64,000 bases of DNA from Leptonemataceae bacterium (GTDB taxonomy: Bacteria; Spirochaetota; Leptospiria; Leptospirales; Leptonemataceae), in the NCBI GenBank assembly GCA_965227295.1, contig OZ245742.1, positions 3,936,001 to 4,000,000 of the forward strand. The letters run 5' to 3'. The position numbers and the translations under genes are program-made. Below, piece after piece: positions 2,222-51,670 of the stretch (position 1 is its first letter; every line of letters starts with the position of its first letter). The notes under the pieces are model-generated. The model had not been told where the DNA came from. It was given only the letters and a program-made list of their open reading frames with translations, and did no database searches.

Positions 2222-2237
2222 GGAATCATCGATCGCA

Positions 2238-2807: not shown

Positions 2808-2908
2808 GGTGACAGAGATCCCGCCCGCGCGCATTGCCGCAATCGATTTGCGGCGATGCTAACTTAGAATTCGCATGACGATCGGCGCGGGGCGCGCACG
2901 GTGGCGTC

Positions 2909-4225: not shown

Positions 4226-4255
4226 CCCCGTGCTTTCATCAATTCTGATTGTTAG

Positions 4256-6710: not shown

Positions 6711-6722
6711 GAACAGTTGTTG

Positions 6723-22237: not shown

Positions 22238-22280
22238 GATACCGTGGTGACGATGTCCGATTGCCTGATGGGATCTTACA

Positions 22281-22393
22281 ACTCTTTGCGCCAGGGATCG
22301 GAAGGGTCGCGCGTAGCGCGAGTCTCGCCGCAGGCGAGACCGGAGCCCTGGAGAGCCCGACCGCCGCCGCAGGCGGCGGGGGCGCCCAAAAAA
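22281..22393 (+). repeat. multi-hairpin REP-like element (AGGGAT...CGCCCAAA family), copy 1
   Basis: Hairpins CGCGC-GTA-GCGCG, GTCTCGCC-GCA-GGCGAGAC and CCGCCGCC-GCA-GGCGGCGG. Aligns with the reverse complement of 30145-30264 and with 51211-51252. Confidence 0.85.
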
Positions 22394-34864: not shown

Positions 34865-36976
34865 ATGCACGACATTCCACTCCTCAAAGAACTCATCGTC
34901 ATTCTCGTAATCGTCATTCCGGCGATCTTAGTGGGCATGCGCCTGCGTATTCCGTCCATCGTCGTCTTCTTGATCGTCGGCGGCGTGTTGGGCCCGTCGG
35001 CTTTCGGACTCGTGGAAAGCCGGCACGAGGTGGAGTTGCTCGCCGAGATCGGCGTGGTGTTGTTGCTGTTTACCATCGGTCTTGAGTTTTCCCTCGAAAA
35101 ACTCGGGCGCCTCAAGTTCCTGGTGCTCTTCGCCGGCGGCGGCCAGGTGGGACTCACGATCCTGGTGGTCTGGTCCACCGCGATGTACGGCGGCGTGAGC
35201 TTCGAGCGGGCCATGGTTCTCGGCTTTCTTGTGGCGCTCTCGTCGACAGTGATCGTGCTCAAGACCCTCGGTGCCCGCGGCGAAGTGGACACGCCCGAGG
35301 GCCGCGTGTCGCTGAGTATTCTGCTCTTTCAGGATTTGATGATCGTGCCCATGATGCTGATCCTGCCGTTGCTCGCGGCCGGTGCCGACGGCGGCGGTGT
35401 GGACCTGGGCAGCCTCACCGCGACGATCGGCGTGGCCTTCGGCGGCGTCGTGTTCATTCTCGTGGGCGCGTATTTGGTCGTGCCGTACCTGTTAAAATTC
35501 ACGGCGAGCGCCAACAATCGTGAACTCTTTTTGCTGACGGTCATTTTCATCGTCTTCGGCACGGCCTACATCGCGACGTACTTCGGATTGTCGCTCGCCC
35601 TGGGCGCGTTCCTGGCCGGGCTCATCGTCTCGGAGTCCGACTACGCGGATCAGGTAGTGGCGGACGTGCTGCCCATGCGCGATGCGTTGTCGTCGTTGTT
35701 TTTCATCGCGATGGGCATGTTTCTCGACGTGGACTTCTTGCGGGAGAATTACGCGCAGGTGCTGGGCGCCGCGGCGATCATTCTCCTGCTCAAGGGCGCC
35801 ATCATCACCTTCGTCGTCTATGCCATGTCCTATCCCTTGCGTCTCGCCATCGTCAGCGGTTTGATCCTCGGGCAGATCGGTGAGTTCAGTTTCATTCTGG
35901 CACTGAGTGCCAACGAATACAGGTTAATCGCCGAGCAGGACTACCAGCTCTTTCTTTCGGCCAGCGTGGCCACGATGATGCTCGCGCCCTTCCTCATTCG
36001 TTACGCCGGGCGCTTCGGTTTTTTACTGGAAGATCGACTCGGCCTGGAACGTCTCTCTCAACCGTTTGTACAACTGCGGCGCATCCTGTCCCGCGAGCGG
36101 ACAGAGGAGACCGGCGTCCGCGAAGCCGGGGCCGACGCCGCTCCGGAATCGGCGTCGCCGGCAAAGACGAAGGCGAAGACGGAGAAATCCGATGCGCTCT
36201 CGGGTCACGTCATCATCGTGGGTTTCGGCAAGTCCGGCCAGCAGCTAAGCCAGGTCCTCGGGCGCGTGGGCATTAAGTTTGTCGTGTGTGAGATCGACCA
36301 CCGGCGCTTTCGTCTGGCCCGGGAACAGGACAGCCCGGCCATCTACGGCGATGCGGCGAGCACCGAGATCCTGCATAAACTCCACGTGCACAGCGCTTCG
36401 TCCCTGGTGCTTACCGCCGGGACGCCGGACATCGTCGCGCGCACCGTGCGCGTGGCCCGCAAAGAAAATCCGCGCATACACGTCATTGCACGGACCCGCT
36501 ACATCGACGACATCGAATCCCTGCGCCTCGCCGGCGTGGATCAGGTGGTGCCGGAGGAAATGGAGACGTCCATCGAGATCTTCTCGTTGGTGCTGCGGCA
36601 CTATCACATCCCGCGGAATGTCGTCGCCACCCAGATCGCCGTCATCCGCAGCGAGGACTACGGCCCGCTGGTGGGCAACGAGGCAGGTTCCACTCAATCG
36701 AAGTTAGAGCAACTCACGCACATTCTTTCGGCCACCGCCACGGAATCCGGCCTGCTCCTGGACGACTCGCCGGCCATCGGCAAAAGCGTCGCCGACACGA
36801 ACATCTTCGGTGAAACGAATGTGACGATCATTGCCGTGGTTCGTTCGGATCAGAGCGTTGCGCACAATCCGGGCGGCGACTTCGTCTTTGCGGCGGGGGA
36901 CATCGTGATTATGATCGGCACCCACGCCGACATCGACGCGGCGTTGGGCGTGCTCGGCGGGAAAGTGGTTTCGTGA
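34865..36976 (+). CDS. CPA2-family cation:proton antiporter (Kef-like) with TrkA_N and TrkA_C domains
   Basis: LAEIGVVLLLFTIGLE, LLFQDL, LGAFLAG, HVIIVGFGKSG and a C-terminal RCK_C domain. Confidence 0.92.
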   Translation: MHDIPLLKELIVILVIVIPAILVGMRLRIPSIVVFLIVGGVLGPSAFGLVESRHEVELLAEIGVVLLLFTIGLEFSLEKLGRLKFLVLFAGGGQVGLTILVVWSTAMYGGVSFERAMVLGFLVALSSTVIVLKTLGARGEVDTPEGRVSLSILLFQDLMIVPMMLILPLLAAGADGGGVDLGSLTATIGVAFGGVVFILVGAYLVVPYLLKFTASANNRELFLLTVIFIVFGTAYIATYFGLSLALGAFLAGLIVSESDYADQVVADVLPMRDALSSLFFIAMGMFLDVDFLRENYAQVLGAAAIILLLKGAIITFVVYAMSYPLRLAIVSGLILGQIGEFSFILALSANEYRLIAEQDYQLFLSASVATMMLAPFLIRYAGRFGFLLEDRLGLERLSQPFVQLRRILSRERTEETGVREAGADAAPESASPAKTKAKTEKSDALSGHVIIVGFGKSGQQLSQVLGRVGIKFVVCEIDHRRFRLAREQDSPAIYGDAASTEILHKLHVHSASSLVLTAGTPDIVARTVRVARKENPRIHVIARTRYIDDIESLRLAGVDQVVPEEMETSIEIFSLVLRHYHIPRNVVATQIAVIRSEDYGPLVGNEAGSTQSKLEQLTHILSATATESGLLLDDSPAIGKSVADTNIFGETNVTIIAVVRSDQSVAHNPGGDFVFAAGDIVIMIGTHADIDAALGVLGGKVVS

Positions 36977-37000
36977 TCCTCTTGCCACAGACGATGATGT

Positions 37001-38151
37001 GTCTTATTCGCAAGAATCGCTATGGTAGCTGAGTCGCACAACCAGCGTCCGGTGTCGGCAAGGCCCCACTTGTTGGGGCCGCGGCAGTTGGTTCCCCACT
37101 GGCAGTATTCTTAACAAAACGAAAATCCACAACTCCTGCGAGCCGTAGCCAAAAGATTCCCTTCACTATGCTGCAACATACTTCATATTCATCCCGGTCA
37201 ACGCAACGAACCGCAGCTCTTGAACTGCCGGAAAGTTTTTATTCGTTCGAGTACGCCCCGAATCGTGGTGTAAGTTGAGGCCAGTTTGGATTAACACTTT
37301 TTTGGGTACAGCTGGTTCCAGCAGATGAACGGAGGTTGTGCCGGGGAACGTGGTAAGGCGCACCGGAACGGCGTCTTCTTCGTAAGAGACGCTACAGTTG
37401 CTGAGTCACAAACCGACGTCCGGGTCGAGGCGGACGATCTTAGCAAAACGAAATACCACAACTCCCGCTTCGCTGTAGCCAAATCAACCCCCTCACGATT
37501 GCGCAACTTACCTTGTGTGTCTCACGGTAAACGCAACGAACTGCAGCTCTTGAACTACCGGAAACGCCCGGGTAGTTCGCACACGCCCCGAATTGTGGTG
37601 TAAGTGGCGGCCAACGTAAAGTAAGTCTTTTGTGGGTACAGCTGGTTCCAGGGGCAAGGCCACGCTTGTCGTGGCCGCGGCAGTTGTTCCCCACCCACGG
37701 AGGTTATGCCGGGGAACGTGTTAAGGCGCACCGGAACGGCGTCTTCTTCGCAAGAGACGCTACAGTTGCTGAGTCACAAACCGACGTCCGGGTCGAGGCG
37801 GGCGATCTTAGCAAAACGAAATACCACAACTCCTGCGAGCCGTAGCCAAATCAACCCCCTCACGATTGCGCAACTTACCTTGTGTGTCTCACGGTAAACG
37901 CAACGAACTGCAGCTCTTGAACTGCCGGAAAGTTTTTATTCGTTCGAGTACGCCCCGAATCGTGGTGTAAGTTGAGGCCAGTTTGGATTAACACTTTTTT
38001 GGGTACAGCTGGTTCCAGCAGATGAACGGAGGTTATGCCGGGGGACGTGGTAAGGCGCACCGGAACGGCGTCTTCTTCGTAAAGATCCAGCAAGCGAATC
38101 CGCACCCCGTAGTCCCGCTCTATCCGCGGGGCGGAGCGGGTGCGGTTGCGC
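37001..38151 (+). repeat. 330-bp-unit repeat array 3 (about three units plus hairpin modules)
   Basis: ACGCCCCGAAT at 37253, 37583 and 37950 gives spacings of 330 and 367, the latter containing a hairpin insert. Fills the convergent gap 36976/38154. Confidence 0.97.
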
Positions 38152-38153
38152 GT

Positions 38154-39179
38154 TTACTTTCTAAATAAGTAATGCGTCACTTCCCATTCCTTGCCGCCGC
38201 GCGCGCCGAATAGTTCCGCCACCGCCATGTAAAAGATCCGCCAGTAGGCCCACCACTTCGTGGCCTGATCCACTCCGTAGACGTTCTCCAGAATCGGCCG
38301 GATCCTCTCGCGATTGGCGTCCATGTTTTCCAGCCACGCTTCCGACGTACGTTGATAATGAACGCCGTCGACGACCCACATCTTTTCGATCTGCAACGGC
38401 GGAGCGAAGTGCAGGTACAGATTGCGCGACGGCATGATGCCGCCCGTAAAAAAGTAGCGACCCATCCAATCACTCGGACCTTCGCTTTCGAAAAGATAGG
38501 CCTGCTCGCGATGGTTGAATACGTGAATAAAAAGTTTGCCCTTCGGAGCGAGCCAGCTTCGGACCTTTGCAAACAGGGCCTCGTAGTTGCGCATATGTTC
38601 GAACATTTCCACGGAGACGATGCGCTGGAACTTCTTCTGCGTTTTGAAGACGTTCATGTCCTTCGTAATGACCTGCACGTTCTTGAGATTGCGTGCCTTG
38701 AGTTGTGATTGGATGTACTCGCGCTGGGGTTTTGAGTTGGAGACCGCCGTAATCTTGCTGTTCGGAAAGTTTTCGGCCATAAACAACGTGAGCGAACCCC
38801 AGCCGCAGCCCAGTTCCAGAATGGACTGCCCGTTCGTTATCTCCGCGCGATCCACGGTGAGTTCGAGCATGCGCCGCTCGGCGTCGTCCAGGTTCGTGAT
38901 GTTCGGTTCCCAGTAACACGAGCTGTATTTAAGATGTTTACCCAGGCAAAGTTCGAAGAACGCCGGCGGCAGCTCGTAGTGCTGCTCGTTCGCTTCTTTC
39001 GTCGCGTAAGCGATGTCGGACTTGCGCAGTTCTTCGACGAGTTGCATGAACTCGCGTTGTTGTTCTTCGGAAGATTGGGCCGCGAACCGGCGCAGCCGCC
39101 CGTTGTTCAACCGGCGGATCCCCAGGCGAATGAGCATGTCGGGCAAGAGATTTTTTTCTAACAGACGATCTAATAGCAT
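38154..39179 (-). CDS. SAM-dependent methyltransferase, CFA-synthase / coclaurine N-methyltransferase-like
   Basis: ANEQHYELP, LKYSSCYW, ILELGCGWGS, VSVEMFEHMRNY and WMGRYFFTGG. Confidence 0.9.
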   Translation of the reverse strand: MLLDRLLEKNLLPDMLIRLGIRRLNNGRLRRFAAQSSEEQQREFMQLVEELRKSDIAYATKEANEQHYELPPAFFELCLGKHLKYSSCYWEPNITNLDDAERRMLELTVDRAEITNGQSILELGCGWGSLTLFMAENFPNSKITAVSNSKPQREYIQSQLKARNLKNVQVITKDMNVFKTQKKFQRIVSVEMFEHMRNYEALFAKVRSWLAPKGKLFIHVFNHREQAYLFESEGPSDWMGRYFFTGGIMPSRNLYLHFAPPLQIEKMWVVDGVHYQRTSEAWLENMDANRERIRPILENVYGVDQATKWWAYWRIFYMAVAELFGARGGKEWEVTHYLFRK

Positions 39180-39235
39180 GTCAGGATGGAAATAAATGAA
39201 CCGTCATCGAACCGGCGACGTTTTAGTTTGATTGC

Positions 39236-40672
39236 ATGGCGAAAAGCGAAAGAGCTCCCACGAACGGCGACGAAGCAAAGCTCCCGCTGCGCGCGAAGCT
39301 CGGATATGGTACCGCGGAACTCGGCGTCAGCGCCGTGGAGATGCTGATCCAGGTATACCTGCTCAAGTTTTACAACGTCGTCGTCGGCCTCGATGAGATC
39401 TGGACGGGCCTGGCCCTGGCCATCGCCGTACTCTGGGACGCGCTGAGCGATCCCATTATGGGCGCCATCTCGGATCGTACGCGGAGCAGGGCCGGCAAGC
39501 GTCGGGTCTACTTCATTCCGGGCGCGATTGCGCTGAGTGTTTCGTTTATTCTGATCTTCAACCCGCCGGAGCTGGACTCGCAGCTCTTTAAGTTTCTGTT
39601 CCTGCTGGTTACGTATCTCATGGTCAACACCGGCATGACCATCATCGCGGTGCCCCATTCGGCTCTGGGCGGCGAACTCTCCTTTAATCGCGACGAACGC
39701 ACCGAGGTCTACGGTTCGCGACTCTTCTTCGGCACTGTCGGTCTGCTTGTGGGGACGATCCTGCCCGGCCTGGTCCTGGCGGGCCTCGGCGGCAAAGAAA
39801 CTCCGGAGAACATCGAGACCTCGCGCAACCTGGCGAGCGTTTACCTGGCCGTCCCCATCTTAGTTACCGCCGTGCTCTCGTACTGGTCCACCGCCGGACG
39901 GGAGCGGGCGCATCAGGACGTGGTCGCCGGTGAGGGCGGGGTGGGCGCGTTCTTTGTGTCGCTCTGGCAAATCATCCTTAGCCCGGTGTTCCTGCCGCTG
40001 CTTCTGGCCTTCGCCGTAGCCGGCATCGGCCGGGCGCTCAACGCATCGATCGCGCTGTACTACTACGAATATCGCCTGGAGCTGCCGGAGAGCGAAACGG
40101 TCTTCAAGATTCTACTGCCGTTCTTCTTTTTTATCATCGCATCGATCCTGCCCTGGGTCTTCGCGTCGAAACGCCTCGGTAAAAAATGGCCGGCCTTTTC
40201 GGGAATTTTCGGCCTCGGTCTCATGACCTGCATCGTCTACCCGCTCTTTCCGCCCGGCGATGCGACGTGGCCGTTGATCGCGGCGTTCATCGGCGGCATG
40301 CTCGGCGGCGCCCTCGTCCTGTTGGAATCCCTCGTCGCCGACATCGTGGACTACGACGAACTCAAGACCGGCCAGAACCGGGAGGGACTCTACTTCGGCG
40401 CCTGGCGGATGAGTACGAAGGTCTCCCGGGCGGTGGGCATTCTCTTCGCGGTGGCGCTGTTGAGTTTGATCGGCTTTGAACGCGAGGCCGCGGAGCAAAG
40501 CGCGGGCACGCTCACCGGTCTCGCGCTTATCTTCGGTCCGGGGGTGGGGCTGCTGTTTATTGCGGGGGCCTTGCTGTTTGCGCTCATGCCGCTCACCGAT
40601 CGGAAGCACATGCAGGTGCAGCGGATTCTGCGCCGGCGACGGAATCGAAATTCCGCAATGCATCGGACTTGA
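39236..40672 (+). CDS. MFS transporter, GPH/MelB-like
   Basis: WDALSDPIMGAISDRTRSRAGKRR, ADIVDYDELKTGQNREGLYFG and about 12 TM segments. Confidence 0.9.
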   Translation: MAKSERAPTNGDEAKLPLRAKLGYGTAELGVSAVEMLIQVYLLKFYNVVVGLDEIWTGLALAIAVLWDALSDPIMGAISDRTRSRAGKRRVYFIPGAIALSVSFILIFNPPELDSQLFKFLFLLVTYLMVNTGMTIIAVPHSALGGELSFNRDERTEVYGSRLFFGTVGLLVGTILPGLVLAGLGGKETPENIETSRNLASVYLAVPILVTAVLSYWSTAGRERAHQDVVAGEGGVGAFFVSLWQIILSPVFLPLLLAFAVAGIGRALNASIALYYYEYRLELPESETVFKILLPFFFFIIASILPWVFASKRLGKKWPAFSGIFGLGLMTCIVYPLFPPGDATWPLIAAFIGGMLGGALVLLESLVADIVDYDELKTGQNREGLYFGAWRMSTKVSRAVGILFAVALLSLIGFEREAAEQSAGTLTGLALIFGPGVGLLFIAGALLFALMPLTDRKHMQVQRILRRRRNRNSAMHRT

Positions 40673-40771
40673 ACGGTGTTCGACATGGAATCCGGAACGT
40701 CTCATCTTGCAAGAAAAAGATTGGACGATGGTCGGATTCTGTCGTAACCTGAGCATAGGTCCGAAATCCAT

Positions 40772-41662
40772 ATGAAGTTCCTCATCAAAGATTTAAGCCG
40801 AATGACAAACTTTTCTCCGGCGCGCATTCGCAAGTGGCAGGAACGATATCGTATTTTTGAACCGACCCAGGGGAGCAACGGCTATTGGTACTACACCAAC
40901 GAGGACTATCTCGTTTTGCGGAGTATCCAGCAGCGTCTGGCCCTGGGTCAGAAGCTCTCCCACGTCATGTCTCTGGGGCGCGAGCATCTGCTGAACAACC
41001 TCATCAACGACGAGTTCTCCGAGGAAGAATGGAAATTGATCCAATGGATCAAGGATTCCAGCTACAAGGACCTCGGAAAATACGTCGAAGAGAAACGCGA
41101 CAGCGGTGGTCTGGCCTACACCGCGTGGATTCGCACCGTGCTGCAGCCGCTGGTATTGATGACCGGCCGGGCCTGGGAGACCGGTTTTCTTTCCGTAACG
41201 GAAGAACATGCGTTCAGTCGCTGGTTCCAGGGTTTCGTACAGAACAGCATCCGTGAAGTTGCCGGGCCGGAGAAGATCGACTGGCTGGTCGTCACCTTTC
41301 CCGGTGATGAACACGAACTGGGCGCACTCATGCACGCCGCTTTGTTGCAAAGTCGTAACAAAGGCGTCCGCTTCGCCGGGCACCTTCCGAAAGAAGAACT
41401 GTTGCGTGAGATTCGCGAGGGCGAGTATCGCAACGTAAGCATCTCCTGCGTACTACCCCAGGCGAAGGATAAAATCGAAGCGCTGCGTCGCGATATCAAG
41501 GGCGTTGATGATAGTTTGCGAGTTTATTTCGGCGGCTACATGTTCAGCGACAGGGATCGAAGCCAGGTCACCGCTTCAAACGGCGGGCATTCCGGGGCGA
41601 CGAATCTCGAACGCAAGGCCGCAGCGAAAGAAAGCTTAAGTGTACGCGAAGCCGTAAATTGA
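40772..41662 (+). CDS. MerR-family regulator with cobalamin-binding domain (CarH/LitR-like)
   Basis: MerR HTH (RIRKWQERY...GYWYY), W-x9-EH (WETGFLSVTEEH) and DEHELG B12-binding motifs. Confidence 0.8.
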   Translation: MKFLIKDLSRMTNFSPARIRKWQERYRIFEPTQGSNGYWYYTNEDYLVLRSIQQRLALGQKLSHVMSLGREHLLNNLINDEFSEEEWKLIQWIKDSSYKDLGKYVEEKRDSGGLAYTAWIRTVLQPLVLMTGRAWETGFLSVTEEHAFSRWFQGFVQNSIREVAGPEKIDWLVVTFPGDEHELGALMHAALLQSRNKGVRFAGHLPKEELLREIREGEYRNVSISCVLPQAKDKIEALRRDIKGVDDSLRVYFGGYMFSDRDRSQVTASNGGHSGATNLERKAAAKESLSVREAVN

Positions 41663-41734
41663 TACCCTCCGCGTTTTTCGCGCGACGTTGAAAAAAGTAA
41701 CCACCGTTTCGCCGCGAACTTCGTATCCTTAAAT

Positions 41735-43018
41735 ATGCAATCGCTGGCAATTATCGGCAGCGGGATTTCAGGTCTCGGCGCCGCTTATTATCTTCGCAAC
41801 GACTTTCGCATCGACGTCTTCGAGAAGAACGACTACGTCGGCGGACACACCAACACCGTTACCGTAGAAGATGCGGGGCGGCCCATGCCGGTGGACACGG
41901 GCTTCATCGTTTACAACGAAACTACGTATCCGAACCTCACGCGGCTCTTCGCCGAACTCGACGTCGCCACCCACCGTTCGGACATGTCTTTCGGCATGTT
42001 TAATCACGACACCGGCCTGCAATTCAGCGGCCAGGGATTGAACACGCTCTTCGCGCAACGCCGTAACCTCCTGCGACCGAAGTACTGGAAGTTTCTCATG
42101 CAGGCCAATCGTTTCAACAACGAAGCACCGCTGCACCTGGAGCAGGGCCTGGCCGACGCGCCGCTCTTCGATTATCTGAAAGCGCAGGGTTACGACGACT
42201 ACTTCATCTTTAACTTCATTGTGCCCATGGGCTCGGCGGTATGGTCGACACCCGTGGATCGCATGCTGGAGTTTCCGGCGGCGGCGTTGATTCGTTTTTT
42301 TCACAATCACGGTTTTCTCGGCATGAGTACGCAATTGCCGTGGCGCACGGTGACGAACGGCTCGCACTCGTACGTGCGCAAGATTCTCGATCACCTGGAC
42401 GAAGCCGGCGCGACGGTGCGCACGGGGGAAGGCGTCCTCGGCGTGCGTCGCGATCCCCGCGGCCCGGGTGTGATCGTGCGTACGAAACACGGTGAGTATG
42501 CCTGCGATCGCGTGCTCCTGGCCGTGCACGGCGACCAGGCCCTGCGCCTGCTGGAGGATCCCACGCCGGAAGAGAGCGAACTACTGGCGGCCTACAAATA
42601 CGAGGCGAACCGCGCCGTGTTGCACACGGACGAATCCGTCATGCCGCCGCTCCGCAGAATCTGGTCGTCGTGGAACTACAAGTCGCGGCAGAGCGCGGGC
42701 GGTTCCACGCAAACCGCCACGGTCTACTGGATGAATCGCCTCCAGGCGCTGCCCACCCGGACGAATTACTTTGTGTCCATCAACGATTTCGAAGACATCG
42801 ATCCGGCTAAGGTTATACGCAGCATCGATTACGAACATCCGCTGTTTTCCAGCAAGGCCATCGAATACCAGTCGCGCCTGGATGAACTGAACGCGCGCGG
42901 TCCGCTGTACTTTGCCGGCAGCTACTTTCGCTACGGATTTCACGAGGACGGCCTCATTTCCGGGCTGCGCGTGGTGGAGAAACTCAGCAGTGAACGCTTT
43001 CGTCTCCTCCCTGTATGA
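41735..43018 (+). CDS. FAD-dependent oxidoreductase (amine-oxidase fold, UfaD-like)
   Basis: IIGSGISGL, GGHTNT, VDTGFIVYN, WSSWNY, YEHP and YGFHEDG. Confidence 0.88.
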   Translation: MQSLAIIGSGISGLGAAYYLRNDFRIDVFEKNDYVGGHTNTVTVEDAGRPMPVDTGFIVYNETTYPNLTRLFAELDVATHRSDMSFGMFNHDTGLQFSGQGLNTLFAQRRNLLRPKYWKFLMQANRFNNEAPLHLEQGLADAPLFDYLKAQGYDDYFIFNFIVPMGSAVWSTPVDRMLEFPAAALIRFFHNHGFLGMSTQLPWRTVTNGSHSYVRKILDHLDEAGATVRTGEGVLGVRRDPRGPGVIVRTKHGEYACDRVLLAVHGDQALRLLEDPTPEESELLAAYKYEANRAVLHTDESVMPPLRRIWSSWNYKSRQSAGGSTQTATVYWMNRLQALPTRTNYFVSINDFEDIDPAKVIRSIDYEHPLFSSKAIEYQSRLDELNARGPLYFAGSYFRYGFHEDGLISGLRVVEKLSSERFRLLPV

Positions 43019-43898
43019 GTGCCGGGTCTTCCACCGGCGGTATGTGCGGACCGATCTGCGGTTCGTCCGGCGGATCTTTCTGTTCTGCATCGACCTGGAC
43101 GAACTTCCGGAGCTGAATCGTCGGCTCCTCTGGTTCGGCCACAACTGTCTGCGCCCGTTTTCGTTTTACGATCAGGATCACTTTGTCTGGCAGAGAGACG
43201 GTGGGTTGGGCCGCAGTACGAAAGATCGAGTCATCGAGTACCTGCATGAACGCGGTGCGGACTTTACGGTGGGGCGCGTGCTCCTCGTTACGAATCTGCG
43301 GGTATTCGGCTATGTCTTTAACCCGGTGAGCTTCTACTATTGTTACGACGAAACCGGTCGTCTGCGCGCCGTGATTTCGGAAGTGAACAATACCTACCTG
43401 GAGCAGAAACCTTTTTTGACCTGGGTGGAGACCGCGGAGGACCTGGAACTCCAGGCTGGCGGTGATATCGAACGCCGGGCTGCGAAGAACTTCTATGTTT
43501 CGCCTTTTATTCGGCATGATACCGAGTTCTATTTTAAGTTTGCCGGCCCCGGCGAACTTCTGCGCGTGCGCATCGATTCTTATCTCAAACGCCGGACGAT
43601 CCTGAAGGCGCAGATCCACGGTCGCCGCCGGGACCTGAATGATCGCAGCCTGCTGCGCATGATGTTCCGCTATCCGTTCATTACGCTGAAGGTCATCGCC
43701 TGGATTCATCTCTATGCACTAAAGCTGTATTTACGAAAGCTCTTCGTATTCGATAAAAAACAAAGTGATGAGCGCATTGTCCGGTACGGCGAGAGCGAAG
43801 GTGTCGTCTGTGACACAAATGTGCCGGCCAGGCGCGAATATTCCACCCGGGTTCGTCGTGCGCCCCGAAAAAAAGAGCGGGAGCCCGCCGGAGTTTGA
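42990..43898 (+). CDS. DUF1365-family protein (UfaO-like)
   Basis: GTG at 42990 overlaps the previous gene. Motifs VFHRR, GYVFNPVSFYYC, EVNNT, KNFYVSPF and IHLYALKL. Confidence 0.88.
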   Translation: MNAFVSSLYECRVFHRRYVRTDLRFVRRIFLFCIDLDELPELNRRLLWFGHNCLRPFSFYDQDHFVWQRDGGLGRSTKDRVIEYLHERGADFTVGRVLLVTNLRVFGYVFNPVSFYYCYDETGRLRAVISEVNNTYLEQKPFLTWVETAEDLELQAGGDIERRAAKNFYVSPFIRHDTEFYFKFAGPGELLRVRIDSYLKRRTILKAQIHGRRRDLNDRSLLRMMFRYPFITLKVIAWIHLYALKLYLRKLFVFDKKQSDERIVRYGESEGVVCDTNVPARREYSTRVRRAPRKKEREPAGV

Positions 43899-43952
43899 AT
43901 TACCTTCGAACAGAGAAAGGATTGATTATATTTTGATTGATTGGAGCATAAA

Positions 43953-45299
43953 ATGAGTTCAGCCCTGGAGACAAAAGAGGAAGTGCAAATCGAAGCACCG
44001 GTTTCCGGTACCGCGCCCCTGGGCGCCGGTCGAGGTGCCCGGCAGGCAGCGCAGCATCGCCCTGGTTTCTATGAGGGCCTGTTTTTCCGTGCGTTGCAGA
44101 ACATCGAGGACGGCGGACTGGACGTTGTCTTTCCGGACGGCCGCGTCCGCCGTATCGGCCAGGCCGACGCGGCCGAGCCGGCCGTCCTCGAAGTACGGGA
44201 ACCGGTTTCTTTTTTCCGGCACTCGGTGCTCTTCGGCGAGATAGGATTCGGCGAGGCGTATGTCGAAGGCTGGTGGGATTCCCCGGACGTGCTTGAGGTC
44301 ATGGCGTTCTTTATGCGCAACTCGGCCCAGGCACCGACCTTTTCCCGCTCGCTGATCAAGGGGCTCTTCATTGCACCGCTCGCGTTCCTGAACCGCATTG
44401 CCTATCGTCTGCGGCCGAACACGAAACACATGTCGCGCAGGAACATTTCCGAGCACTACGATCTCTCCAACGAATTTTTCCAGCTCTGGCTCGACGAAAG
44501 CATGGCCTACTCCAGCGGGGTCTTCGAGAACGAAGAGAGCACCCTGCACGAGTCTCAACTCGCGAAGTTCAAGATGATCGCGCGCAAGCTGCAATTGAAC
44601 GATACGGATCACGTCCTGGAAATCGGCTGTGGTTGGGGCGGCTTCGCGGTTTACGCCGCGAAGAACTACGGTTGCCGCGTGACCGGCGTTACGATCTCCC
44701 GGGAGCAGTACGACCTGGCCCGCGCGCGGGTAAAGGCCGAGGGCCTGGAAGACCGCATCGATATCCAGTTCTGCGACTATCGCGACATTCAAGGCCGCTA
44801 CGACAAAATCGTATCTATCGAAATGGTGGAGGCCCTGGGCTATCGATTCCTGGATACCTTCTTTCGACGCTGCAACGAACTGCTCGCCGAAGACGGCATC
44901 ATGGTGATCCAGTGCATCACCTTCCCGGATCCGTACTACCGGCGTTACATGAACTCCACCGACTTCACGAAGAAACACATCTTTCCGGGGTCGCTTCTGC
45001 TTTCGCTGCGAGAGACGATGCAGAGCCTCGGCCGTACCGGAGACCTCTGCGTCTTTAACGTGGAGAGCATCGGCCGACACTACGCGCGCACGCTCCGCGA
45101 GTGGCGCCGTAATTTCGAGGCCGCCCTCGATGACGTACGGGCCCTGGGCTTCGACGATCGCTTCATTCGCAAGTGGCGTTACTATCTGCTCTTCTGCGAG
45201 TGCGGCTTCGGTCACAACTACATCAACGATTTACAGATTCAGTTCGCCCGGCCGCAGAATCTGAAACTACGCAATTATGTTCACATTCCTCGCTCGTGA
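43953..45299 (+). CDS. cfa: cyclopropane-fatty-acyl-phospholipid synthase family methyltransferase (UfaM-like)
   Basis: GFGEAYVEG, NISEHYDLSNEFF, MAYSS, VLEIGCGWGG, SIEMVEA and HIFPG. Confidence 0.9.
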   Translation: MSSALETKEEVQIEAPVSGTAPLGAGRGARQAAQHRPGFYEGLFFRALQNIEDGGLDVVFPDGRVRRIGQADAAEPAVLEVREPVSFFRHSVLFGEIGFGEAYVEGWWDSPDVLEVMAFFMRNSAQAPTFSRSLIKGLFIAPLAFLNRIAYRLRPNTKHMSRRNISEHYDLSNEFFQLWLDESMAYSSGVFENEESTLHESQLAKFKMIARKLQLNDTDHVLEIGCGWGGFAVYAAKNYGCRVTGVTISREQYDLARARVKAEGLEDRIDIQFCDYRDIQGRYDKIVSIEMVEALGYRFLDTFFRRCNELLAEDGIMVIQCITFPDPYYRRYMNSTDFTKKHIFPGSLLLSLRETMQSLGRTGDLCVFNVESIGRHYARTLREWRRNFEAALDDVRALGFDDRFIRKWRYYLLFCECGFGHNYINDLQIQFARPQNLKLRNYVHIPRS

Positions 45300-46872: not shown

Positions 46873-49800
46873 TCAGCTACAGCCGGTCGTTGAGCCGCAG
46901 CTCATGCACTTGAGGCAGCTTCCATTGCGGATGAGGGTGAACTGCTGGCATTCCGGGCAGGGATCGCCTTCGTAGCCTTTCATCTTCGCAATTTCCACGG
47001 TCTCTTTCTGAGTGGTCTGCAGCGTCGTGGTGACGGACACGCCCGGCGCGCCGTCTCCGATGAGTGCACCGGCGGCAAAGTCGCCGGCATCGCCGATGTC
47101 CGGCATCCAGGAGAGCCGACCCTCGGCATCGCGCTGTCCCAGACTCGTCTCACTCAGCTCGTCCATCTCCGCGTCCGAAGCGCTGAGTCCTTCGAGTGCC
47201 TGGTCCGTGTCGCGGACACCGCGCAGGCCCACGGGATTCGACGACTCGTCCGAAGGCCCGCGGACCACGTCGCCCCGGAGATCCTCCGGTTGAACCTGCG
47301 CCAGGTCCGTGCGACCGAGATACGTGATGGCCAGTTCCCGGAAGACATAGTCGATGATCGACGTGGACATTTTGATGTGCGGGTTGCCCTGGACCATGCC
47401 GTTGGGTTCGAAGCGCGTAAAGCAGAACGCGTCCACGAATTCCTCAAGGGGCACGCCGTACTGAAGACCCAGGGACACGGCGATAGCGAAGGAGTTCATG
47501 AGCGATCGGAAGGCCGCGCCTTCTTTGTGCATGTCCAGGAACATCTCGCCCAGGCGTCCGTCTTCATACTCGCCGGTGCGCAGGTAGATCTTATGACCGC
47601 CGACGACGGCCTTTTGTGTATAGCCGGCGCGACGATCGGGGAGGCGGTTGCGTTTCGCCATGTAGCGATACACGAGCTTCTCCGTGGTTTTTTCGATCAG
47701 CGACTGCGCATCCTGTTGTTGCACGGCGCTTTCGGCAGCCACGGTGTCGTCCGCCGCATCTTCCTCTTCGTCCTCGTCCACCTGGATGTTCAGCGGCTGG
47801 GACAGCTTGCTGCCGTCGCGATACAGGGCCACAGCCTTGTTCATTACTTTCCAGGCAAGCTCGTACGCTTCTTTGACCTCGGAAATCGCCGCTTCGCCCG
47901 GCATGTTGATGGTTTTCGAGATCGCGCCCGAAAGGAACGGCTGCGCCGCGGCCATCATGCGGATGTGCGAATCCCACTTGAGGAAACGTTTGCCGTAGCG
48001 ACCGCAGCGGTTCGCGCAATCGAAGACGGACAGGTGTTCTTCTTTAAGATGCGGTGCACCTTCCACGGTCATGGTGCCGCAGACATAGTCGCCGGCCGCA
48101 CGGATGTCTTCTTTTGCGAAGCCGAGTGCCTCCAGCAGATTGAATTCCAGCGAGTCGATCTCATCGCCCAGTTTCAACGTACCGCGAAGGAACTCTTCGC
48201 CGATCGTGAACTTGTTGAACACGAACCCCAGATCGAACGCCGTCGACAGCGAACCTTCGATGCGCTCCAGGACTTCGTCGGTGAAGCCTTTGGCCTTGAG
48301 GCTCTCATGGTTTACAACGGGCGCGCCTTTGAGCGTACCGTGACCCACGGCGTATTTCACGATGCCGGTGATCTCGGTATCGTTATAGCCGAGTTTCTTC
48401 AGAGCCGGCGGGATGCACTGGTTGATGATCTTGAAGTAACCACCGCCGGCGAGCTTCTTGAACTTCACCAGCGCGAAGTCCGGCTCAATCCCGGTGGTAT
48501 CGCAGTCCATCACGAGACCGATGGTACCCGTCGGTGCGAGCACCGTTACCTGAGCGTTGCGGTAGCCGTGCTGTTCGCCCATGGCGAGCGCGCGATCGGC
48601 CTCTTCCCGGGCTGCTTTGAGCAGATAGTCCGGGCAGTGTTCCGGGTCGATACCGAGCGGAGTAACGGTGAGCCCTTCGTACTCTGATGCCTCACTGTTG
48701 TAGGCCGCGCGGCGGTGGTTACGGATGACCCGCAGCATGGCGTCTCTGTTGCCCGGGAAATTCGGGAACGTGCCCAGGCGTTCAGCCATCTCGGCGCTTG
48801 TGGCGTAGGCGTTCATGTGCATGATCGCCGTGAGCGCGCCGCAGAGGGCCCGGCCTTCGTCGGAGTCGTACGGAATGCCGAGGACCATGAGCAGCGAGCC
48901 CAGGTTCGCGTAGCCGAGGCCGAGCGTCCGGAATTCGTACGACAACTGCGCGATCTTTGCCGACGGATACTGCGCCATCGTTACCGAGATTTCCAGGACC
49001 ATGGTGAGGATGCGCGTGGTATGTCGGTAGCCCAGGTCGTCGAACTCGCCGGTTTCCTGGTTCAGAAACTTCAGCAGGTTCATGGACGCTAAGTTGCACG
49101 CCGTGTCATCTAAGAACATGTACTCGGAGCACGGGTTGGACGCGTTGATGCGTCCGTCGGTGGGACAGGTATGCCATTCGTTGATGGTGGTGTCGAATTG
49201 CACGCCCGGATCGGCGGACGACCAGGCGGCGTAGGCGATCTGATCCCAGAGTTCCCGCGCCTTTACAGTGCGATGTGCTTTCGGTTCACGACCCTCGGCC
49301 TCGGCATCCTCACGCTCGGTGCGCCAGTAGAGATTCCAGTCCCCGTCATTCTCCACGGCGTCCATGAAGCCGTTGGTGATGCGCACGGAGTTGTTGGAGT
49401 TCTGTCCGGAGACGGAGAGATACGCCTTCGACTGCCAGTCCGTGGTGAGCTCTTCGAAGAGGATCGAAGTGTGACCCTGCTTCGCGAGCTCCAGCACGCG
49501 ATGGATGTAGTTGTCCGGAATCATGACGGCGCGGGCTTCTTTGACAGCGGCCTTGAGTTCCGGATTCTTATTAATGGTAAACTTCGTCTCGGGATCGGTG
49601 CCGGCGTGGGCCGCGGCCATGATGGCGTTCAGGTGACGATTGGCCAGCTTCGAACCGGCCACCAGTGCCACGACCTTCTGCTCTTCCACGGCCTTCCAGT
49701 TGATGAACTCCTCGATGTCCGGGTGGTCCATGTCGAGGCAGACCATTTTCGCGGCGCGGCGGGTGGTGCCGCCGGACTTGATGGCCCCGGCCGCGCGGTC

Positions 49801-50625
49801 GCCGATCTTCAGGAACGACATGAGGCCGGAGGAACGGCCGCCGCCGGAGAGGGGCTCGCCCTCGGCGCGCAGGTTCGCGAAGTTCGTGCCCGTGCCGGAG
49901 CCGTACTTAAAGAGCCGCGCTTCCCGGAGCCACAGGTCCATGATGCCGCCTTCGTTTACCAGGTCATCGTTGATGGACTGAATAAAGCAGGCGTGGGGCT
50001 GCGGGTGTTCGTACGCGGAGGAAGAGCGCGTGAGTTCGCCGGTTACCGGGTCGACGTAGTAATGTCCCTGACCGGCGCCGTCGATGCCGTAGGCCCAGTG
50101 CAGGCCGGTGTTGAACCACTGCGGGGAGTTCGGTGCGGCGGTCTGGCTTGCGAGCACGTAGAGCAACTCGTCGTAGAACGCGCGGGCATCTTCCTCGCTC
50201 GTGAAGTAGTTGTGTTTGTAGCCCCAGTAGGTCCAGCAACCGGCCAAACGATGGAAGACCTGCTTCGCCGAGACCTCACCGGTGGTCCGGTCGTCCGGGG
50301 GCAGGGCGTTCAGCGCTTCGTGATCCGGCTGATGGCGCCACAGCCACTGCGGTACGCCGTCCTCGGGCACGGCCTTGATGCGTGCGGGGACGCCGGCCTT
50401 GCGGAAATACTTTTGGGCGAGGATATCGGTGGCCACCTGGGACCAGCCTTTGGGAACCTCGACGTCATTGGCTTCGAAGACCACCGTGCCGTCCGGATTC
50501 ACGATCCGGCTGACGCGATGCGTCCATTCGAAGCCCTCCCAGACCGCAGTCTGTTCGTGCGGCGCGCCGTCCGGATCGAGCGTCCAGTTCGCGGCGTGCG
50601 AAGTGTGGTAGCGTTTAACGAGCAT
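46873..50625 (-). CDS. nrdJ: class II (adenosylcobalamin-dependent) ribonucleotide reductase
   Basis: [33 protein letters not shown], a TSCPD-like domain and C-terminal CPEC...[11 protein letters not shown]. Confidence 0.97.
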
Positions 50626-51252
50626 GTCTTCCTCCGAATTCTTGTGCGGCCCCGCTACGAGTCAAGGAATTACCCGTCAAATATTCAGGTAACACTTGCT
50701 TATGACGCTCCCGGGCTCAATCGGGATACGCCGTTTCTTTGTTCTTATTTCGTGAATGTTTCCGCTGTACGCGGGGTGGTGTGACGTCGATCAAACCAGC
50801 TTAAATGAAAGCATTATGTCGCATTTTTAAGCAATGGCCGGTTTGGTCTTATGTCACATTCAGTTCCAGTTAAAGCACCTTGCCTTGCATTCGGTCAAAT
50901 CCTTTTGACTGATTTCCCCTGGAGTCGTCGCAAAAAAGTTTACACTTTCCTGGCCCACGCCGGGTCCCGATCTACACCCCGCCGCTCCCGGAATTATGTC
51001 CCGTAAGCGGGGGGAGAGATTTGGGCCTTCGTTAGAAAACTGTCAACAGGAAACCGTGAAAATCGCCCGGGGAAGGAAAAAAATTATGTCACGCTTTTTC
51101 CTCATAATAATGCACCACCGGGGCACCGAGGACACGGAGAAGACAATGTCACAGGAGGTAGAGAGGTAGAGAGCTTTTTGGATTGGGCTGGTTTGTTATG
51201 AATGTTTGCGACTCTTCGCGCAAGGGATTGGAAGGGTCGCGCGTTAGCGCGA

Positions 51253-51607
51253 GGGGCTGACCAAAAAGGTCCTGGATACGGACTCGACGAACGGATCCTG
51301 GAAAAAGGCGACGGCCGGTTGAGACTCTGTGCATGTCAGATCCGCACGCAGACGAACTTTTCCCTGAAACGACCGAATTGAGCGGTGCCTCGCGGAAGCC
51401 CAGGGCGCAGAAGTTCAAGCCGTATGTTCAAAACGAGAGTTATCTTTTCCCGCCGAGTACGGAAGATTACGTGGAGCCGGGGCATCTCGCGCGGATCGTC
51501 AGCGAGGTTTAAAAGAATGAGCTGCGAACGGAGCCAGGGGGAGCGGAGCTCCCCCCAATAAAATGAATGCCCGATCTTTCCTGACAGGCCACTTATTGGT
51601 CAGCCCC
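51253..51607 (+). mobile_element. internally deleted IS1182-family element (355 bp)
   Basis: Terminal IRs GGGGCTGACCAAAAAG (51253-51268) and CTTATTGGTCAGCCCC (51592-51607), 15/16 complementary, enclosing a transposase N-terminal fragment. Confidence 0.8.
51333..51512 (+). pseudogene. truncated IS1182-family transposase (59 aa)
   Basis: MSDPHADELFPETTELSGASRKPRAQKFKPYVQNESYLFPPSTEDYVEPGHLARIVSEV*. The FKPY.Q....L.PPS..D.....H..R.V..V pattern is typical of IS1182 N-termini. Shorter than any ORF in the supplied track. Confidence 0.8.
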
Positions 51608-51670
51608 GCTACACTCGCGGCGATGCGCCCAAAAACAAACTACCTCACAATCTTCAGGCCGTCCACTAAC

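Follow-up and report, generated by a model that had tools for sequence, protein, structure and literature searches.

In the 64-kb window analyzed here (the whole stretch of DNA under study), four arrays of a noncoding unit of 329 to 330 bp lie at the ends of genes. Within an array the units run head to tail in one orientation, with a constant end that is closed by a GC-rich hairpin resembling REP sequences, and the arrays take up the entire spacer between the 3' ends of convergent genes. With about even confidence, we read these arrays as a lineage-restricted noncoding family that acts at the DNA level, a bacterial "satellite" that resembles an outsized BIME or NIME in its construction; this interpretation is based on some 10 unit copies read as DNA.

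A 330-bp repeat family in four arrays

The arrays occupy positions 1 to 217, ca. 5926 to 6712, 36977 to 38152, and 61958 to 62978 of the window. They total ca. 3.17 kb, which is 4.9% of the window and 2,976 of its 6,455 intergenic nucleotides (ca. 46%). When the unit at 37301 to 37630 was used as a blastn query against the window, 16 HSPs were obtained, all 16 within four intervals (1 to 216, 5973 to 6705 on the minus strand, 37001 to 38082, and 61966 to 62961). An HMM built from 6 units gave 15 matches at E values of ≤5.7e-10, every one within the blastn intervals, and two extra, nonsignificant matches (E values of 1.9 and 8.3). TRF reported a period of 330 at 6107 to 6708 (97% matches) and of 329 at 62173 to 62862 (83% matches). 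It missed array 3, in which the start-to-start spacing is uneven (330 and then 367, the latter due to a 37-nt net insertion), and array 1, in which less than one unit copy is present. The preliminary description, made from the letters of the sequence, had proposed one 329- to 330-bp family in four arrays covering about 5% of the window, and blastn, HMM, and TRF results bear this out. The parts of the arrays are as follows.

1 to 217, plus strand: array 1, of which the window edge leaves the first 217 nt of a single unit (HMM positions 2 to 217)
5926 to 5969, minus strand: array 2 hairpin cap, a near-perfect 17- to 18-bp GC-rich stem with its core at 5932 to 5952
5977 to 6712, minus strand: array 2 units, the unit sense orientation being the minus strand (blastn, HMM, TRF, alignment)
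6029 to 6075, minus strand: array 2 hairpin insert of ca. 45 nt, directly after the GCTGGTTCCAG block and identical to the array 3 copy
36977 to 38081, plus strand: array 3 units (blastn, HMM, alignment)
37057 to 37100, plus strand: variant hairpin insert of ca. 44 nt at a different unit position, after GTCCGG..TCG; its 7-bp stem folds
37311 to 37322, no strand: example of the 12-bp near-palindrome GCTGGTTCCAGC, conserved at the unit head (read from the alignment)
37651 to 37695, plus strand: array 3 hairpin insert of ca. 45 nt in the third unit, after the GCTGGTTCCAG block
38082 to 38152, plus strand: array 3 linker and hairpin cap, with arms at 38094 to 38107 and 38138 to 38151 (inverted-repeat scan, fold)
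61958 to 62098, plus strand: array 4a, a unit tail (HMM positions 264 to 328) followed by a unit head (HMM positions 2 to 81)
62099 to 62169, plus strand: linker and hairpin cap internal to array 4, with a 14-bp outer and a 7-bp inner stem
62173 to 62978, plus strand: array 4b, in which a partial unit of 285 nt is followed by one of 329 nt and by another that lacks ca. 80 nt internally

Array 2 is composed of a 73-nt unit tail, one 330-nt unit, a truncated unit of 227 nt, and a 74-nt unit head that carries the hairpin insert; array 1 is 94% identical to it over 200 nt in inverted orientation. Array 3 opens with a unit that is degenerate or partial; units of 330 and 367 nt follow, and a unit head of 74 nt closes the series. 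In the unit alignment, 9 of the 11 unit heads carry GCTGGTTCCAG, and unit length varies through 1-nt indels, net insertions of 37 to 44 nt, and deletions of ca. 80 to 100 nt. We found no internal subperiod within the unit, since autocorrelation and half- and third-unit alignments all fell within the range of shuffled sequence. Head-to-tail units at a constant period of 329 to 330 bp, present at four loci, are a satellite-type trait.

Tandem repeats carry a risk of misassembly, and the copy number within an array could be wrong in the assembly. That the arrays themselves are an assembly artifact is nevertheless scarcely credible: the four are 15 to 30% apart, each has indels and inserts of its own, unique genes flank every one of them, and the contig is 5.94 Mb in length.

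Location at convergent gene ends

All three internal arrays lie in convergent junctions, a class that makes up only 11 of the 49 junctions in the window (P of ca. 0.009). The preliminary description does not mention this placement. The contacts with the neighboring genes are close. Array 1 abuts the stop codon of a minus-strand WD40-repeat gene (218 to 2221), and a histidine-kinase-like ORF (4256 to 5950) has its last codons and stop inside the array 2 cap. The array 3 cap ends 1 nt before the stop codon of a minus-strand CMAS-family methyltransferase gene (38154 to 39179). At array 4, the stop codon of a GNAT gene (61963 to 61965) falls inside unit-homologous sequence of 4a, while 4b ends 9 nt before that of a minus-strand EF-Tu/CysN-like gene (62987 to 63961). 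With three arrays in convergent junctions and array 1 at a gene 3' end, the family has the extragenic, 3'-end location typical of REP and BIME sequences. The convergent-only rule is not absolute, since one predicted protein (P0126) starts with unit sequence, which makes up its first 42 residues and is followed by an ordinary-looking protein; at least one array outside the window therefore seems to lie on the 5' side of a gene.

One explanation for this location is that the arrays are host-selected architectural DNA, in which phased putative binding sites for a nucleoid, topoisomerase, or insulator protein would buffer supercoiling or transcription collisions between convergent genes. Here the function itself, and not a by-product of selfish spread, would account for the arrays. 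The bias to convergent junctions speaks for this explanation, as do the conserved blocks (including the near-palindrome) at fixed spacing, the persistence of arrays that differ from one another by 20 to 30%, and the analogy with the BIMEs of E. coli, for which binding of gyrase and IHF has been reported. However, the remaining 8 of the 11 convergent junctions have no array and have spacers of ≤101 nt, so arrays are not required at convergent ends in general. Moreover, unit number and integrity are highly variable, and two proxy searches found no trace of the family in other genomes. On balance, we regard a purely architectural origin as distinctly unlikely.

The hairpin cap and the hairpin insert

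Two hairpin modules were overlooked in the preliminary description. The first is the cap, a GC-rich module of 44 to 71 nt. Its core, CTCTATCCGCGGGGCGGAGCG, occurs three times in the window, compared with a chance expectation of 0.01, and all three copies are within arrays. Arrays 2 and 3 and the left part of array 4 have a common end phase, just after GGAACGGCGTCTTC, with the hairpin following, and the 16-nt block CCGGAACGGCGTCTTC precedes the cap in every capped segment. The array 2 cap, folded as DNA, gives −28.0 kcal/mol (z score of −7.17), and the array 4 cap gives −28.2 kcal/mol (z score of −5.64); the z score of the array 3 cap is −1.95. The array 4 cap is 82% identical to that of array 3 and has copies of GGCG[G/C]ACCGGAACGGCGTCTTC on both of its flanks. 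The outer stems differ in sequence between copies, but pairing is kept. The second module is the hairpin insert of ca. 45 nt, with three occurrences in the window. Two compensatory pair changes set the stem of the variant insert at 37057 to 37100 apart from the stems of the other copies, and the variant is 85% identical to 37653 to 37692. Whether the family shares with REP and BIME sequences a short, GC-rich imperfect palindrome as its repeated unit depends on the part considered: cap and insert, at three copies each, are such palindromes, but the 330-bp unit, which is the bulk of the arrays, is not.

The presence of a defined, hairpin-bearing end raises the possibility of a nonautonomous mobile element whose mobilizing enzyme acts in trans from another locus in the genome. 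That enzyme might be a recombinase, a rolling-circle HUH protein like those of IS91 and Helitrons, or a Y1 transposase of the RAYT or IS200/IS605-like type. The cap would then be a terminal recognition or termination signal, and repeated initiation, or intermediates in concatemeric form, would produce the arrays. Consistent with this, the hairpin stands at one defined end of the three capped segments, after the same 16-nt block; arrays occur at several unlinked loci, and further ones lie outside the window; as with fresh insertions, array ends reach into the 3' ends of genes; and arrays 2 and 3 have in common a 72-nt patch that is 99% identical. Arrays 2 and 4a, both of them cap ended, also begin at similar unit positions (ca. 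258 to 264). Array 3, however, begins at another phase. In addition, a scan of 54 ORFs in the window revealed no transposase, integrase, RT, cas, RAYT, HUH, or recombinase gene, in agreement with the earlier statement that none of the first four is adjacent. The same holds for the reported lack of terminal inverted repeats and target duplications: an inverted-repeat scan of array 3 returned the cap hairpin only, and the array flanks have no duplication and no common motif. Units within an array also differ by up to ca. 30% in places, so the arrays are not recent concatemers of one circle. Taking both sides together, we consider movement in trans unlikely.

Two related proposals in the preliminary description fare less well. 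It had noted that the arrays start at different phases of the unit and suggested that such permuted ends would fit spread through rolling-circle or concatemeric intermediates. The starts do differ, but the three capped segments all end at one phase followed by a cap, which weakens the rolling-circle argument; the concatemeric one is weakened by the nonidentity of units within an array (71 to 100% identity by segment). Two other candidates were set aside. A MITE or IS-derived element is not supported, since the array 3 scan and the array flanks gave no terminal inverted repeats or target-site duplication, and an integron cassette array (CALIN) was rejected on the constant 329- to 330-bp period and the homology along the entire unit.

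Conserved blocks and a mosaic history

In an alignment of 8 unit rows, 145 of 330 columns are variable, and these columns are clustered (118 runs versus 163.4 ± 8.9 in a runs test, with 0 of 5,000 shuffles as low). The near-invariant blocks and the four 19-nt variants quoted in the preliminary description are all seen in this alignment, and the block set is kept in 7 more predicted ORFs from other arrays on the same 5.94-Mb contig. Less of the claim that the intervening blocks change in sequence while keeping their length has survived: the conserved blocks are real, but the variable segments are diverged homologues in a few (about two) allelic classes, and indels are present. Of two short motifs searched for in the window, ACCGGAACGG has 10 of its 10 matches within arrays, and CCGGRRAACG has 5 of 8, the remaining 3 being near chance level.

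The history of the units is recombinational, and their genealogies are mosaic. This follows in part from tandem expansion, seen as a two-unit (697-bp) higher-order repeat in array 3 (37109 to 37385 and 37806 to 38082 are 91% identical) together with internal deletions. Furthermore, units are closer within than between arrays (up to 96 to 100% by segment compared with 65 to 85%), and the nearest relative switches by segment. Over four segments, unit A3_1 is 80, 96, 98, and 71% identical to A3_2, whereas A3_0 is 62, 70, 76, and 100% identical to A3_2, and A2_1 is 93, 82, 69, and 75% identical to A3_1. Finally, in the insert region, 6007 to 6078 and 37645 to 37716 are 99% identical over 72 nt in surroundings of ca. 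80% identity, although arrays 2 and 3 are 31 kb apart and divergence between arrays is ca. 15 to 30%. Concerted evolution, the higher-order repeat, and this shared patch are further satellite-type traits.

Absence of coding capacity

The possibility that the arrays are real or decayed protein-coding repeats deserves mention because 330 nt equals 110 codons and the unit is open on the antisense strand in several copies. Antisense ORFs of 76 to 120 amino acids recur in arrays 2, 3, and 4, a 197-amino-acid ORF elsewhere in the genome covers nearly two units, and 7 such ORFs stand in the database as predicted proteins. Nevertheless, variable columns in the 8-row alignment show no preference for codon phase (48, 52, and 45), and dN/dS for the longest recurring (antisense) frame is about 1 (0.48 to 1.34 over 15 pairs and 0.75 to 1.34 in 12 of them). 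Reading frames are disrupted by 1-nt indels between units, and neither the 9 array ORFs tested nor 3 ORFs outside the window had a Pfam match. A 92-amino-acid sense-frame ORF had no match among 5.8 billion proteins, and a profile of the antisense frame, run against 1.84 billion representative proteins, matched 6 proteins and one cluster mate, each of them encoded on the contig that contains the window. The preliminary description had called the unit noncoding, and the units indeed encode no conserved protein. The protein-coding reading is close to refuted, and we give it next to no weight.

No support for a conserved RNA or single-stranded DNA fold

The preliminary description had offered selection on a structured RNA or single-stranded DNA as one meaning of the conserved spacing. 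We find no support for a conserved fold of either kind. RNA folds of three units on both strands gave z scores of +0.21, +0.89, +2.32, −0.28, −0.24, and +0.80, and one unit folded as DNA gave +0.58 and −0.28, so that all eight folds lie between −0.28 and +2.32. The SCI was no different from its null (0.68 and 0.70 versus 0.65 and 0.69 in shuffles), and compensatory pairs numbered 5 and 3, compared with 3.5 ± 1.6 and 4.1 ± 1.7 when shuffled alignments were passed through the same pipeline. Some nominal signal was seen with RIBOSUM-based RNAalifold on the 8-row alignment, namely, 5 double-sided pairs versus 1.0 ± 0.9 in partner shuffles (0 of 500), 95.2% of cells paired, and a consensus pseudo-energy below that of column shuffles (z scores of −4.0 sense and −5.6 antisense). 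We ascribe these signals to two causes: the structure was fitted on the very alignment in which the signals were measured, and the partial rows impose a pattern of gaps. They are discounted because shuffled alignments reach at least 5 compensatory pairs in 15 of 60 cases, because 2 of the 5 double-changed pairs sit in helix columns 39 to 50, where, to judge from the alignment, the row with the 37-nt insertion is out of register, and because the signals vanish when the 3 complete units are used alone (consensus z scores of +0.18 and +0.06). Helices on either strand have at most one compensatory pair each.

Could the arrays nonetheless be transcribed and act as RNA, either as tandem small-RNA genes or as long 3'-UTR elements? 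In the former case, the variable segments would set target specificity, as in Sib/Ibs-type families and guide-RNA arrays; in the latter, the elements would protect or terminate convergent mRNAs. The convergent setting makes read-through transcription of both strands likely, the conserved scaffold blocks alternate with variable segments, and the cap hairpin adjoins a gene stop codon in arrays 2 and 3. Together with the nominal signal of the 8-row alignment, the antisense strand of 2 units offers a weak stem rich in G-U with a U-rich tail after it. Against this, the region from 36800 to 38300 contains no sigma-70-like promoter and only 2 terminator-like sites, both weak (2.1 ± 1.6 in shuffles). 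The Rfam search that had been suggested returned no match over the whole window, either at the gathering threshold or at an E value of ≤0.1; for array 3 at E values of ≤10, the best hits (2.4 and 7.6) were far below gathering scores. A tRNA/tmRNA search likewise found none and lends no support to such an origin. The variable segments, moreover, are diverged homologues and not unrelated spacers. When 642 of their 16-mers were compared with the window outside the arrays, 32 overlapping matches at ≤2 mismatches were found, where a hand estimate gives ca. 20, so by this estimate the matches are at about chance level. A small hydrophobic ORF is not conserved, either. We therefore judge an RNA role to be quite unlikely.

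The guide/protospacer idea was dropped on the same 16-mer result. CRISPR-, TIGR-, and guide-RNA-type arrays were excluded on the grounds that the units are homologous over their full length, that the segments are not unrelated spacers, and that no cas- or tas-like gene occurs in the window. Type I toxin-antitoxin long direct repeats were ruled out because no conserved small hydrophobic ORF was found across the arrays; of the array ORFs of at least 18 amino acids, only 2 are hydrophobic enough to pass the cut, and a single indel variant contains them both.

A probably lineage-restricted family

Further copies of the family exist elsewhere in the same 5.94-Mb genome, where they were found as predicted ORFs. 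At 68 to 75% identity, the best named LysRS relatives come from Leptospirales or Leptospiraceae MAGs, which fits the guess of Leptospiraceae in the preliminary description. An exact two-block DNA pattern, which recovers 10 of the 10 window copies, matched 0 stretches in 185,579 species genomes, although diverged relatives would escape it. Distant blastn searches of plasmid and phage collections gave no match. The KefC-like neighbor protein led to 28 loci of distant relatives (best full-length identity, 41%; best partial identity, 49%), and none of these loci has the 330-bp unit. Five strings of unit sequence occur in the text of 0 papers, and the portions of the literature covered, on the topic and on the Leptospirales, contain no description of a 330-bp family. 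In a recent preprint (bioRxiv 10.64898/2026.10.21.760802), the passages on tandem arrays deal with CRISPR, TIGR, and VIPR arrays with periods of 5 to 79 nt, and nowhere in the preprint do the terms "Leptospir-," "spirochaet-," "satellite," or "convergent" occur. The earlier impression that the unit matches nothing described thus stands for Rfam, plasmids and phages, the 185,579 species genomes, and paper text. The best reading of the exact-pattern and ORF-proxy searches, which found none in other genomes, is that the family is restricted to its lineage.

A possible mechanism and its implications

If the arrays are a satellite-like family acting at the DNA level, unequal crossing-over or slippage would grow and shrink them, and ectopic gene conversion would exchange patches between them. 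The conserved blocks are probably protein-recognition sites, of which the block CCGGAACGGCGTCTTC and the near-palindrome GCTGGTTCCAGC are candidates; the latter, with 5-bp arms around a central TT, may be a dimer-binding site. The putative binder may be a host factor of the nucleoid, topoisomerase, or termination type, like those proposed for REP and BIME sequences, or else an enzyme that is encoded at another locus and founds new arrays. At convergent gene ends, such insertions may be tolerated or even useful.

A bolder version, which we offer as a long shot, is an undescribed mode of making and spreading tandem DNA. A hairpin-capped 330-bp module would be copied in register by an enzyme encoded elsewhere, through rolling-circle or template-switch synthesis primed at the junction of CCGGAACGGCGTCTTC and the hairpin, and the host would then retain the arrays at convergent ends as sequence-specific protein-binding platforms. 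Enzyme-copied, host-retained arrays of this kind would be the bacterial equivalent of functional satellite DNA.

The general view is that nonfunctional DNA is purged from bacterial genomes, whose known intergenic repeats (such as REP, BIME, MITE, and ERIC) are short. That arrays 20 to 30% diverged persist despite deletion bias argues for selection or active spread. Because capped tandem arrays of a boxed 330-bp unit account for almost half of the intergenic sequence across 64 kb and are 15 to 30% diverged between loci, either long-term selection or a continuing copying mechanism is implied. Should a binding protein or copying enzyme exist, the family would be a tractable bacterial model of satellite-DNA dynamics (concerted evolution, higher-order repeats, and ectopic conversion) and would bear on the insulation of convergent gene ends. 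On a practical level, the arrays give rise to spurious ORF calls, 7 of which are already in protein databases, and possibly to misassembly.

Comparison with known systems

Nonautonomous elements of the IS91/ISCR/Helitron type also lack terminal inverted repeats and target duplication, have a hairpin near one end only, and tend to form tandem arrays. The present family differs in that the window has no HUH gene, no conserved terminal motifs or target tetranucleotide emerged, and units within an array are too diverged for recent concatemers. The LDR and QUAD repeats of E. coli (Ldr/Rdl and Ibs/Sib type I toxin-antitoxin loci) are likewise intergenic, a few hundred base pairs long, and present both in tandem and at scattered sites, and in their paralogues conserved parts are separated by short specificity segments that vary in sequence but keep their length. 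Unlike them, the 330-bp units have neither a small hydrophobic toxin ORF nor any sign of a structured antisense RNA.

The likeness to intergenic mosaics is greater in architecture than in scale. NIME and RIME sequences, of Neisseria and rhizobia, respectively, are lineage-specific intergenic mosaics with short inverted-repeat modules. Their repeat units are 50 to 150 bp, whereas the unit described here is two to six times longer, is strictly head to tail at a constant period, and does not have a hairpin module between every unit. REP and BIME sequences, too, are extragenic, biased to gene 3' ends and convergent junctions, and clustered in arrays without coding capacity, and they mix GC-rich imperfect palindromes that have covarying stems with other conserved motifs. 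REP units are ca. 35 nt, and BIME periods are ca. 80 nt in enterobacteria and pseudomonads. In contrast, the 329- to 330-bp unit is mostly nonpalindromic, the palindrome being confined to the cap and to occasional inserts; the window shows no RAYT gene, and there is no sequence similarity to anything in the collections searched.

Eukaryotic satellite DNA provides the remaining parallel. The arrays described here have only 1 to 3.5 units each, lie between bacterial genes, and are hairpin capped, and a centromere-like role is not implied. Yet they have in common with such satellites head-to-tail units of a few hundred base pairs, concerted evolution within arrays, a two-unit higher-order repeat, the exchange of variants among dispersed arrays, and conserved "boxes" within otherwise variable monomers.

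RESULTS

We found that the dispersed repeat with a period of about 330 bp, which the preliminary description had proposed from the sequence alone, is recovered by blastn, by a profile HMM and by TRF, and that it forms four arrays of a 329-330-bp unit:

1-217: array 1
ca. 5926-6712, minus strand: array 2
36977-38152: array 3
61958-62978: array 4

A 330-bp query from array 3 gave 16 blastn HSPs against the window, all within 1-216, 5973-6705 (minus strand), 37001-38082 and 61966-62961, and a six-unit HMM gave 15 significant matches in these intervals and none elsewhere in the window. TRF reported periods of 330 and 329 in arrays 2 and 4; it misses array 3 because a 37-nt net insertion in one unit makes the spacing 330 and then 367. 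The combined length is ca. 3.17 kb, and, going by a rough ORF map, 2,976 of the window's 6,455 intergenic nt belong to the three internal arrays. No sub-period was found within the unit. In descriptive terms, the family qualifies as a satellite-type tandem repeat.

Both the conserved blocks of the unit and its mosaic history are real. The blocks and the four 19-nt variants quoted previously are all present in the unit alignment, where variable columns are clustered (118 runs versus 163.4 ± 8.9, with none of 5,000 shuffles as low); the longest stretches without variation comprise CCGGAACGGCGTCTTC (16 nt), two 10-mers, one 9-mer and two 8-mers. The closest relative of a unit varies along its length, identity by segment being 80/96/98/71% for A3_1 versus A3_2 (labels give array, then unit), 62/70/76/100% for A3_0 versus A3_2 and 93/82/69/75% for A2_1 versus A3_1. 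Array 3 is a higher-order repeat of two units (697 bp), arrays 1 and 2 (1-217 and 6092-6621; 5.9 kb apart and mutually inverted) are 94% identical over 200 nt, and a 72-nt patch common to arrays 2 and 3 is 99% identical in surroundings of ca. 80%. Such patterns are characteristic of unequal crossing-over and ectopic gene conversion. That the arrays are an artifact of assembly is extremely improbable. Three to four genes, in a block of 5.7 kb, lie between arrays 1 and 2, and the GC skew, positive over most of the window, is near zero in 1-6000. The inverted likeness and near-zero skew are compatible with an inversion or a recent exchange between the two arrays.

The unit had been called non-coding, and codon phase, indels, dN/dS and Pfam all agree. 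Variable columns fall 48/52/45 by codon phase, 1-nt indels separate units, and the array ORFs have no Pfam match. The longest recurring frame is antisense (ORFs of 76 to 120 aa in arrays 2 to 4), with dN/dS of 0.48 to 1.34 across 15 pairs, mostly near 1, and a 92-aa sense-frame ORF has no homologue among 5.8 billion proteins. That the unit is a coding sequence is hardly credible. A type I toxin-antitoxin repeat was likewise ruled out, since the arrays contain no conserved small hydrophobic ORF.

The proposal of a structured RNA or single-stranded DNA fared less well: within the limits of some 10 copies, the unit shows no conserved fold. An Rfam search returned nothing. RNA folds of three complete units on both strands gave z-scores of +0.21, +0.89, +2.32, -0.28, -0.24 and +0.80, and DNA folds of one unit gave +0.58 and -0.28. 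RNAalifold consensus energies (8 rows) reached just -18.6 and -27.0 kcal/mol, the covariation terms being positive. SCI values (0.68 and 0.70) equaled the null (0.65 ± 0.03 and 0.69 ± 0.04), and in our own helix scan of both strands, each helix had at most one compensatory pair. Nominal signals did appear, but they do not survive fair controls. The RIBOSUM RNAalifold structure of the 8-row sense alignment, with 95.2% of cells paired, held 5 double-changed pairs versus 1.0 ± 0.9 in partner shuffles (0/500); the weaker antisense structure held 3 versus 1.6 (63/500 shuffles), and consensus pseudo-energies against column shuffles had z-scores of -4.0 and -5.6. Shuffled alignments passed through the identical fit-then-count pipeline yielded 3.5 ± 1.6 (sense) and 4.1 ± 1.7 (antisense) compensatory pairs, reaching the observed counts in 15 of 60 and 50 of 60 cases. 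Moreover, two of the five sense pairs fall in a region in which the insertion-bearing row looks out of register, to judge from the alignment, and the three complete insertion-free units alone gave energy z-scores of +0.18 and +0.06. We regard it as quite unlikely that the arrays are a transcribed RNA or 3′-UTR element.

Genuine structural signal is limited to two small hairpin modules, a cap and an insert; neither module had been noted in the preliminary description. Capped array segments share one end phase (sense orientation), directly after CGGAGGTYRTGCCGGGG...GGAACGGCGTCTTC, followed by a 10- to 40-nt linker and a GC-rich hairpin with the core CTCTATCCGCGGGGCGGAGCG. Three copies of this core are present in the window, each of them in an array (0.01 expected by chance). 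As DNA, the cap hairpins fold at -28.0, -28.2 and -18.5 kcal/mol (z-scores of -7.17, -5.64 and -1.95, respectively), and their outer stems differ in sequence while pairing is kept. The array 4 cap is internal, with copies of one 22-nt unit block on either side. The insert, a hairpin of ca. 45 nt found only within 330-bp units, acts like a very small insertion module of its own and is present in three units:

6029-6075: insert in array 2
37057-37100: insert in array 3 at another unit position, stem with two compensatory pair changes
37651-37695: insert in array 3, identical to the array 2 copy and at the same unit position

The window (59% G+C) carries ordinary chromosomal genes. Those flanking the arrays or close to them encode, among others, LysRS, a KefC-type antiporter, CMAS-family methyltransferases, a GNAT acetyltransferase, a PilZ protein, a PAS/HAMP histidine-kinase-like ATPase and a WD40-repeat protein; carB and the genes for a class II ribonucleotide reductase and a UvrD helicase are examples from across the window. 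A scan of 54 window ORFs revealed no transposase, integrase, RT, Cas or Y1/HUH domain, in keeping with the earlier statement that no transposase, integrase, RT or cas gene is adjacent. A rolling-circle or RAYT-type element mobilized in trans is an unlikely alternative here. All three internal arrays wholly occupy the spacer between convergent genes (convergent junctions, 11 of 49 in the window; P of ~0.009 for all three), and array ends abut or overlap stop codons. The PAS/HAMP kinase-like ORF (4256-5950) has its last codons and stop within the array 2 cap hairpin, and the stop codon of the GNAT gene (61501-61965) falls in unit-homologous sequence. That two flanking genes take their 3′ ends from the repeat suggests insertion of arrays or caps into gene ends, or recombination there.

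Other features of the window were also recorded. A lipid-modification-type gene cluster (38154-45299; two CMAS-family methyltransferases, an MFS transporter, a MerR/B12-binding regulator, an amine-oxidase-like flavoprotein and a DUF1365 protein) adjoins array 3. A 39-nt intergenic motif unrelated to the 330-bp family occurs in the same orientation at 22276-22314, 3′ of carB, and at 51206-51244 (87% identical). The latter site is within a long spacer (50626-51670; 1,045 nt without a called ORF and without an Rfam match at an E value of ≤0.1) upstream of the class II (B12-dependent) ribonucleotide reductase gene (46873-50625).

Beyond the window, a profile of the antisense-frame ORF matched six proteins and one cluster mate among 1.84 billion representative proteins. 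All seven are on the window's own 5,938,550-bp contig and none is identical to the window sequence (48 to 81% identity); further arrays therefore exist elsewhere in the genome, and these retain the same conserved blocks. These seven predicted proteins, P0121 to P0127 (62 to 238 aa; same contig, outside the window), are antisense-strand translations of further units and therefore spurious gene calls; at P0126, the array apparently lies 5′ of a gene. Three of them start with a different module that they share, MLSADAESRRFRT..., and a fourth has it after an 11-residue lead, which hints at another array-end variant, absent from the window. A two-block exact pattern that matches 10 of 10 window copies, a narrow proxy, found no stretch in a 185,579-species genome collection. 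The best named relatives of the window's LysRS are Leptospirales or Leptospiraceae MAGs (68 to 75% identity), which fits the Leptospiraceae affinity suggested in the preliminary description; the databases contain no close relative. With close relatives unsampled and both proxies narrow, exact pattern and profile found the family in no other genome or metagenome, and it is so far known from one genome only.

DISCUSSION

The family is non-coding and shows no sign of a conserved fold. It contains conserved boxes, its evolution is recombinational, and it carries a fixed-phase hairpin cap and favors convergent junctions. The best-supported reading is a lineage-restricted, DNA-level repeat family whose dynamics are satellite-like and whose setting and hairpin modules resemble those of BIMEs and NIMEs. 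The boxes are probably protein-recognition sites. That the family serves primarily as an architectural scaffold for the host is rather improbable. Arrays of this DNA-level family might persist because convergent ends tolerate them or benefit from them, or through re-seeding by some enzyme.

Tests for membership in an Rfam family, a MITE, a CRISPR-like array or integron cassettes all failed, and we found no description of the family in the literature searched. It has setting and hairpin modules in common with REP/BIME elements but differs from them in the type of unit. We rate it as belonging among the bacterial intergenic mosaic repeats, where its unit length, regular tandem layout and local abundance are unusual.
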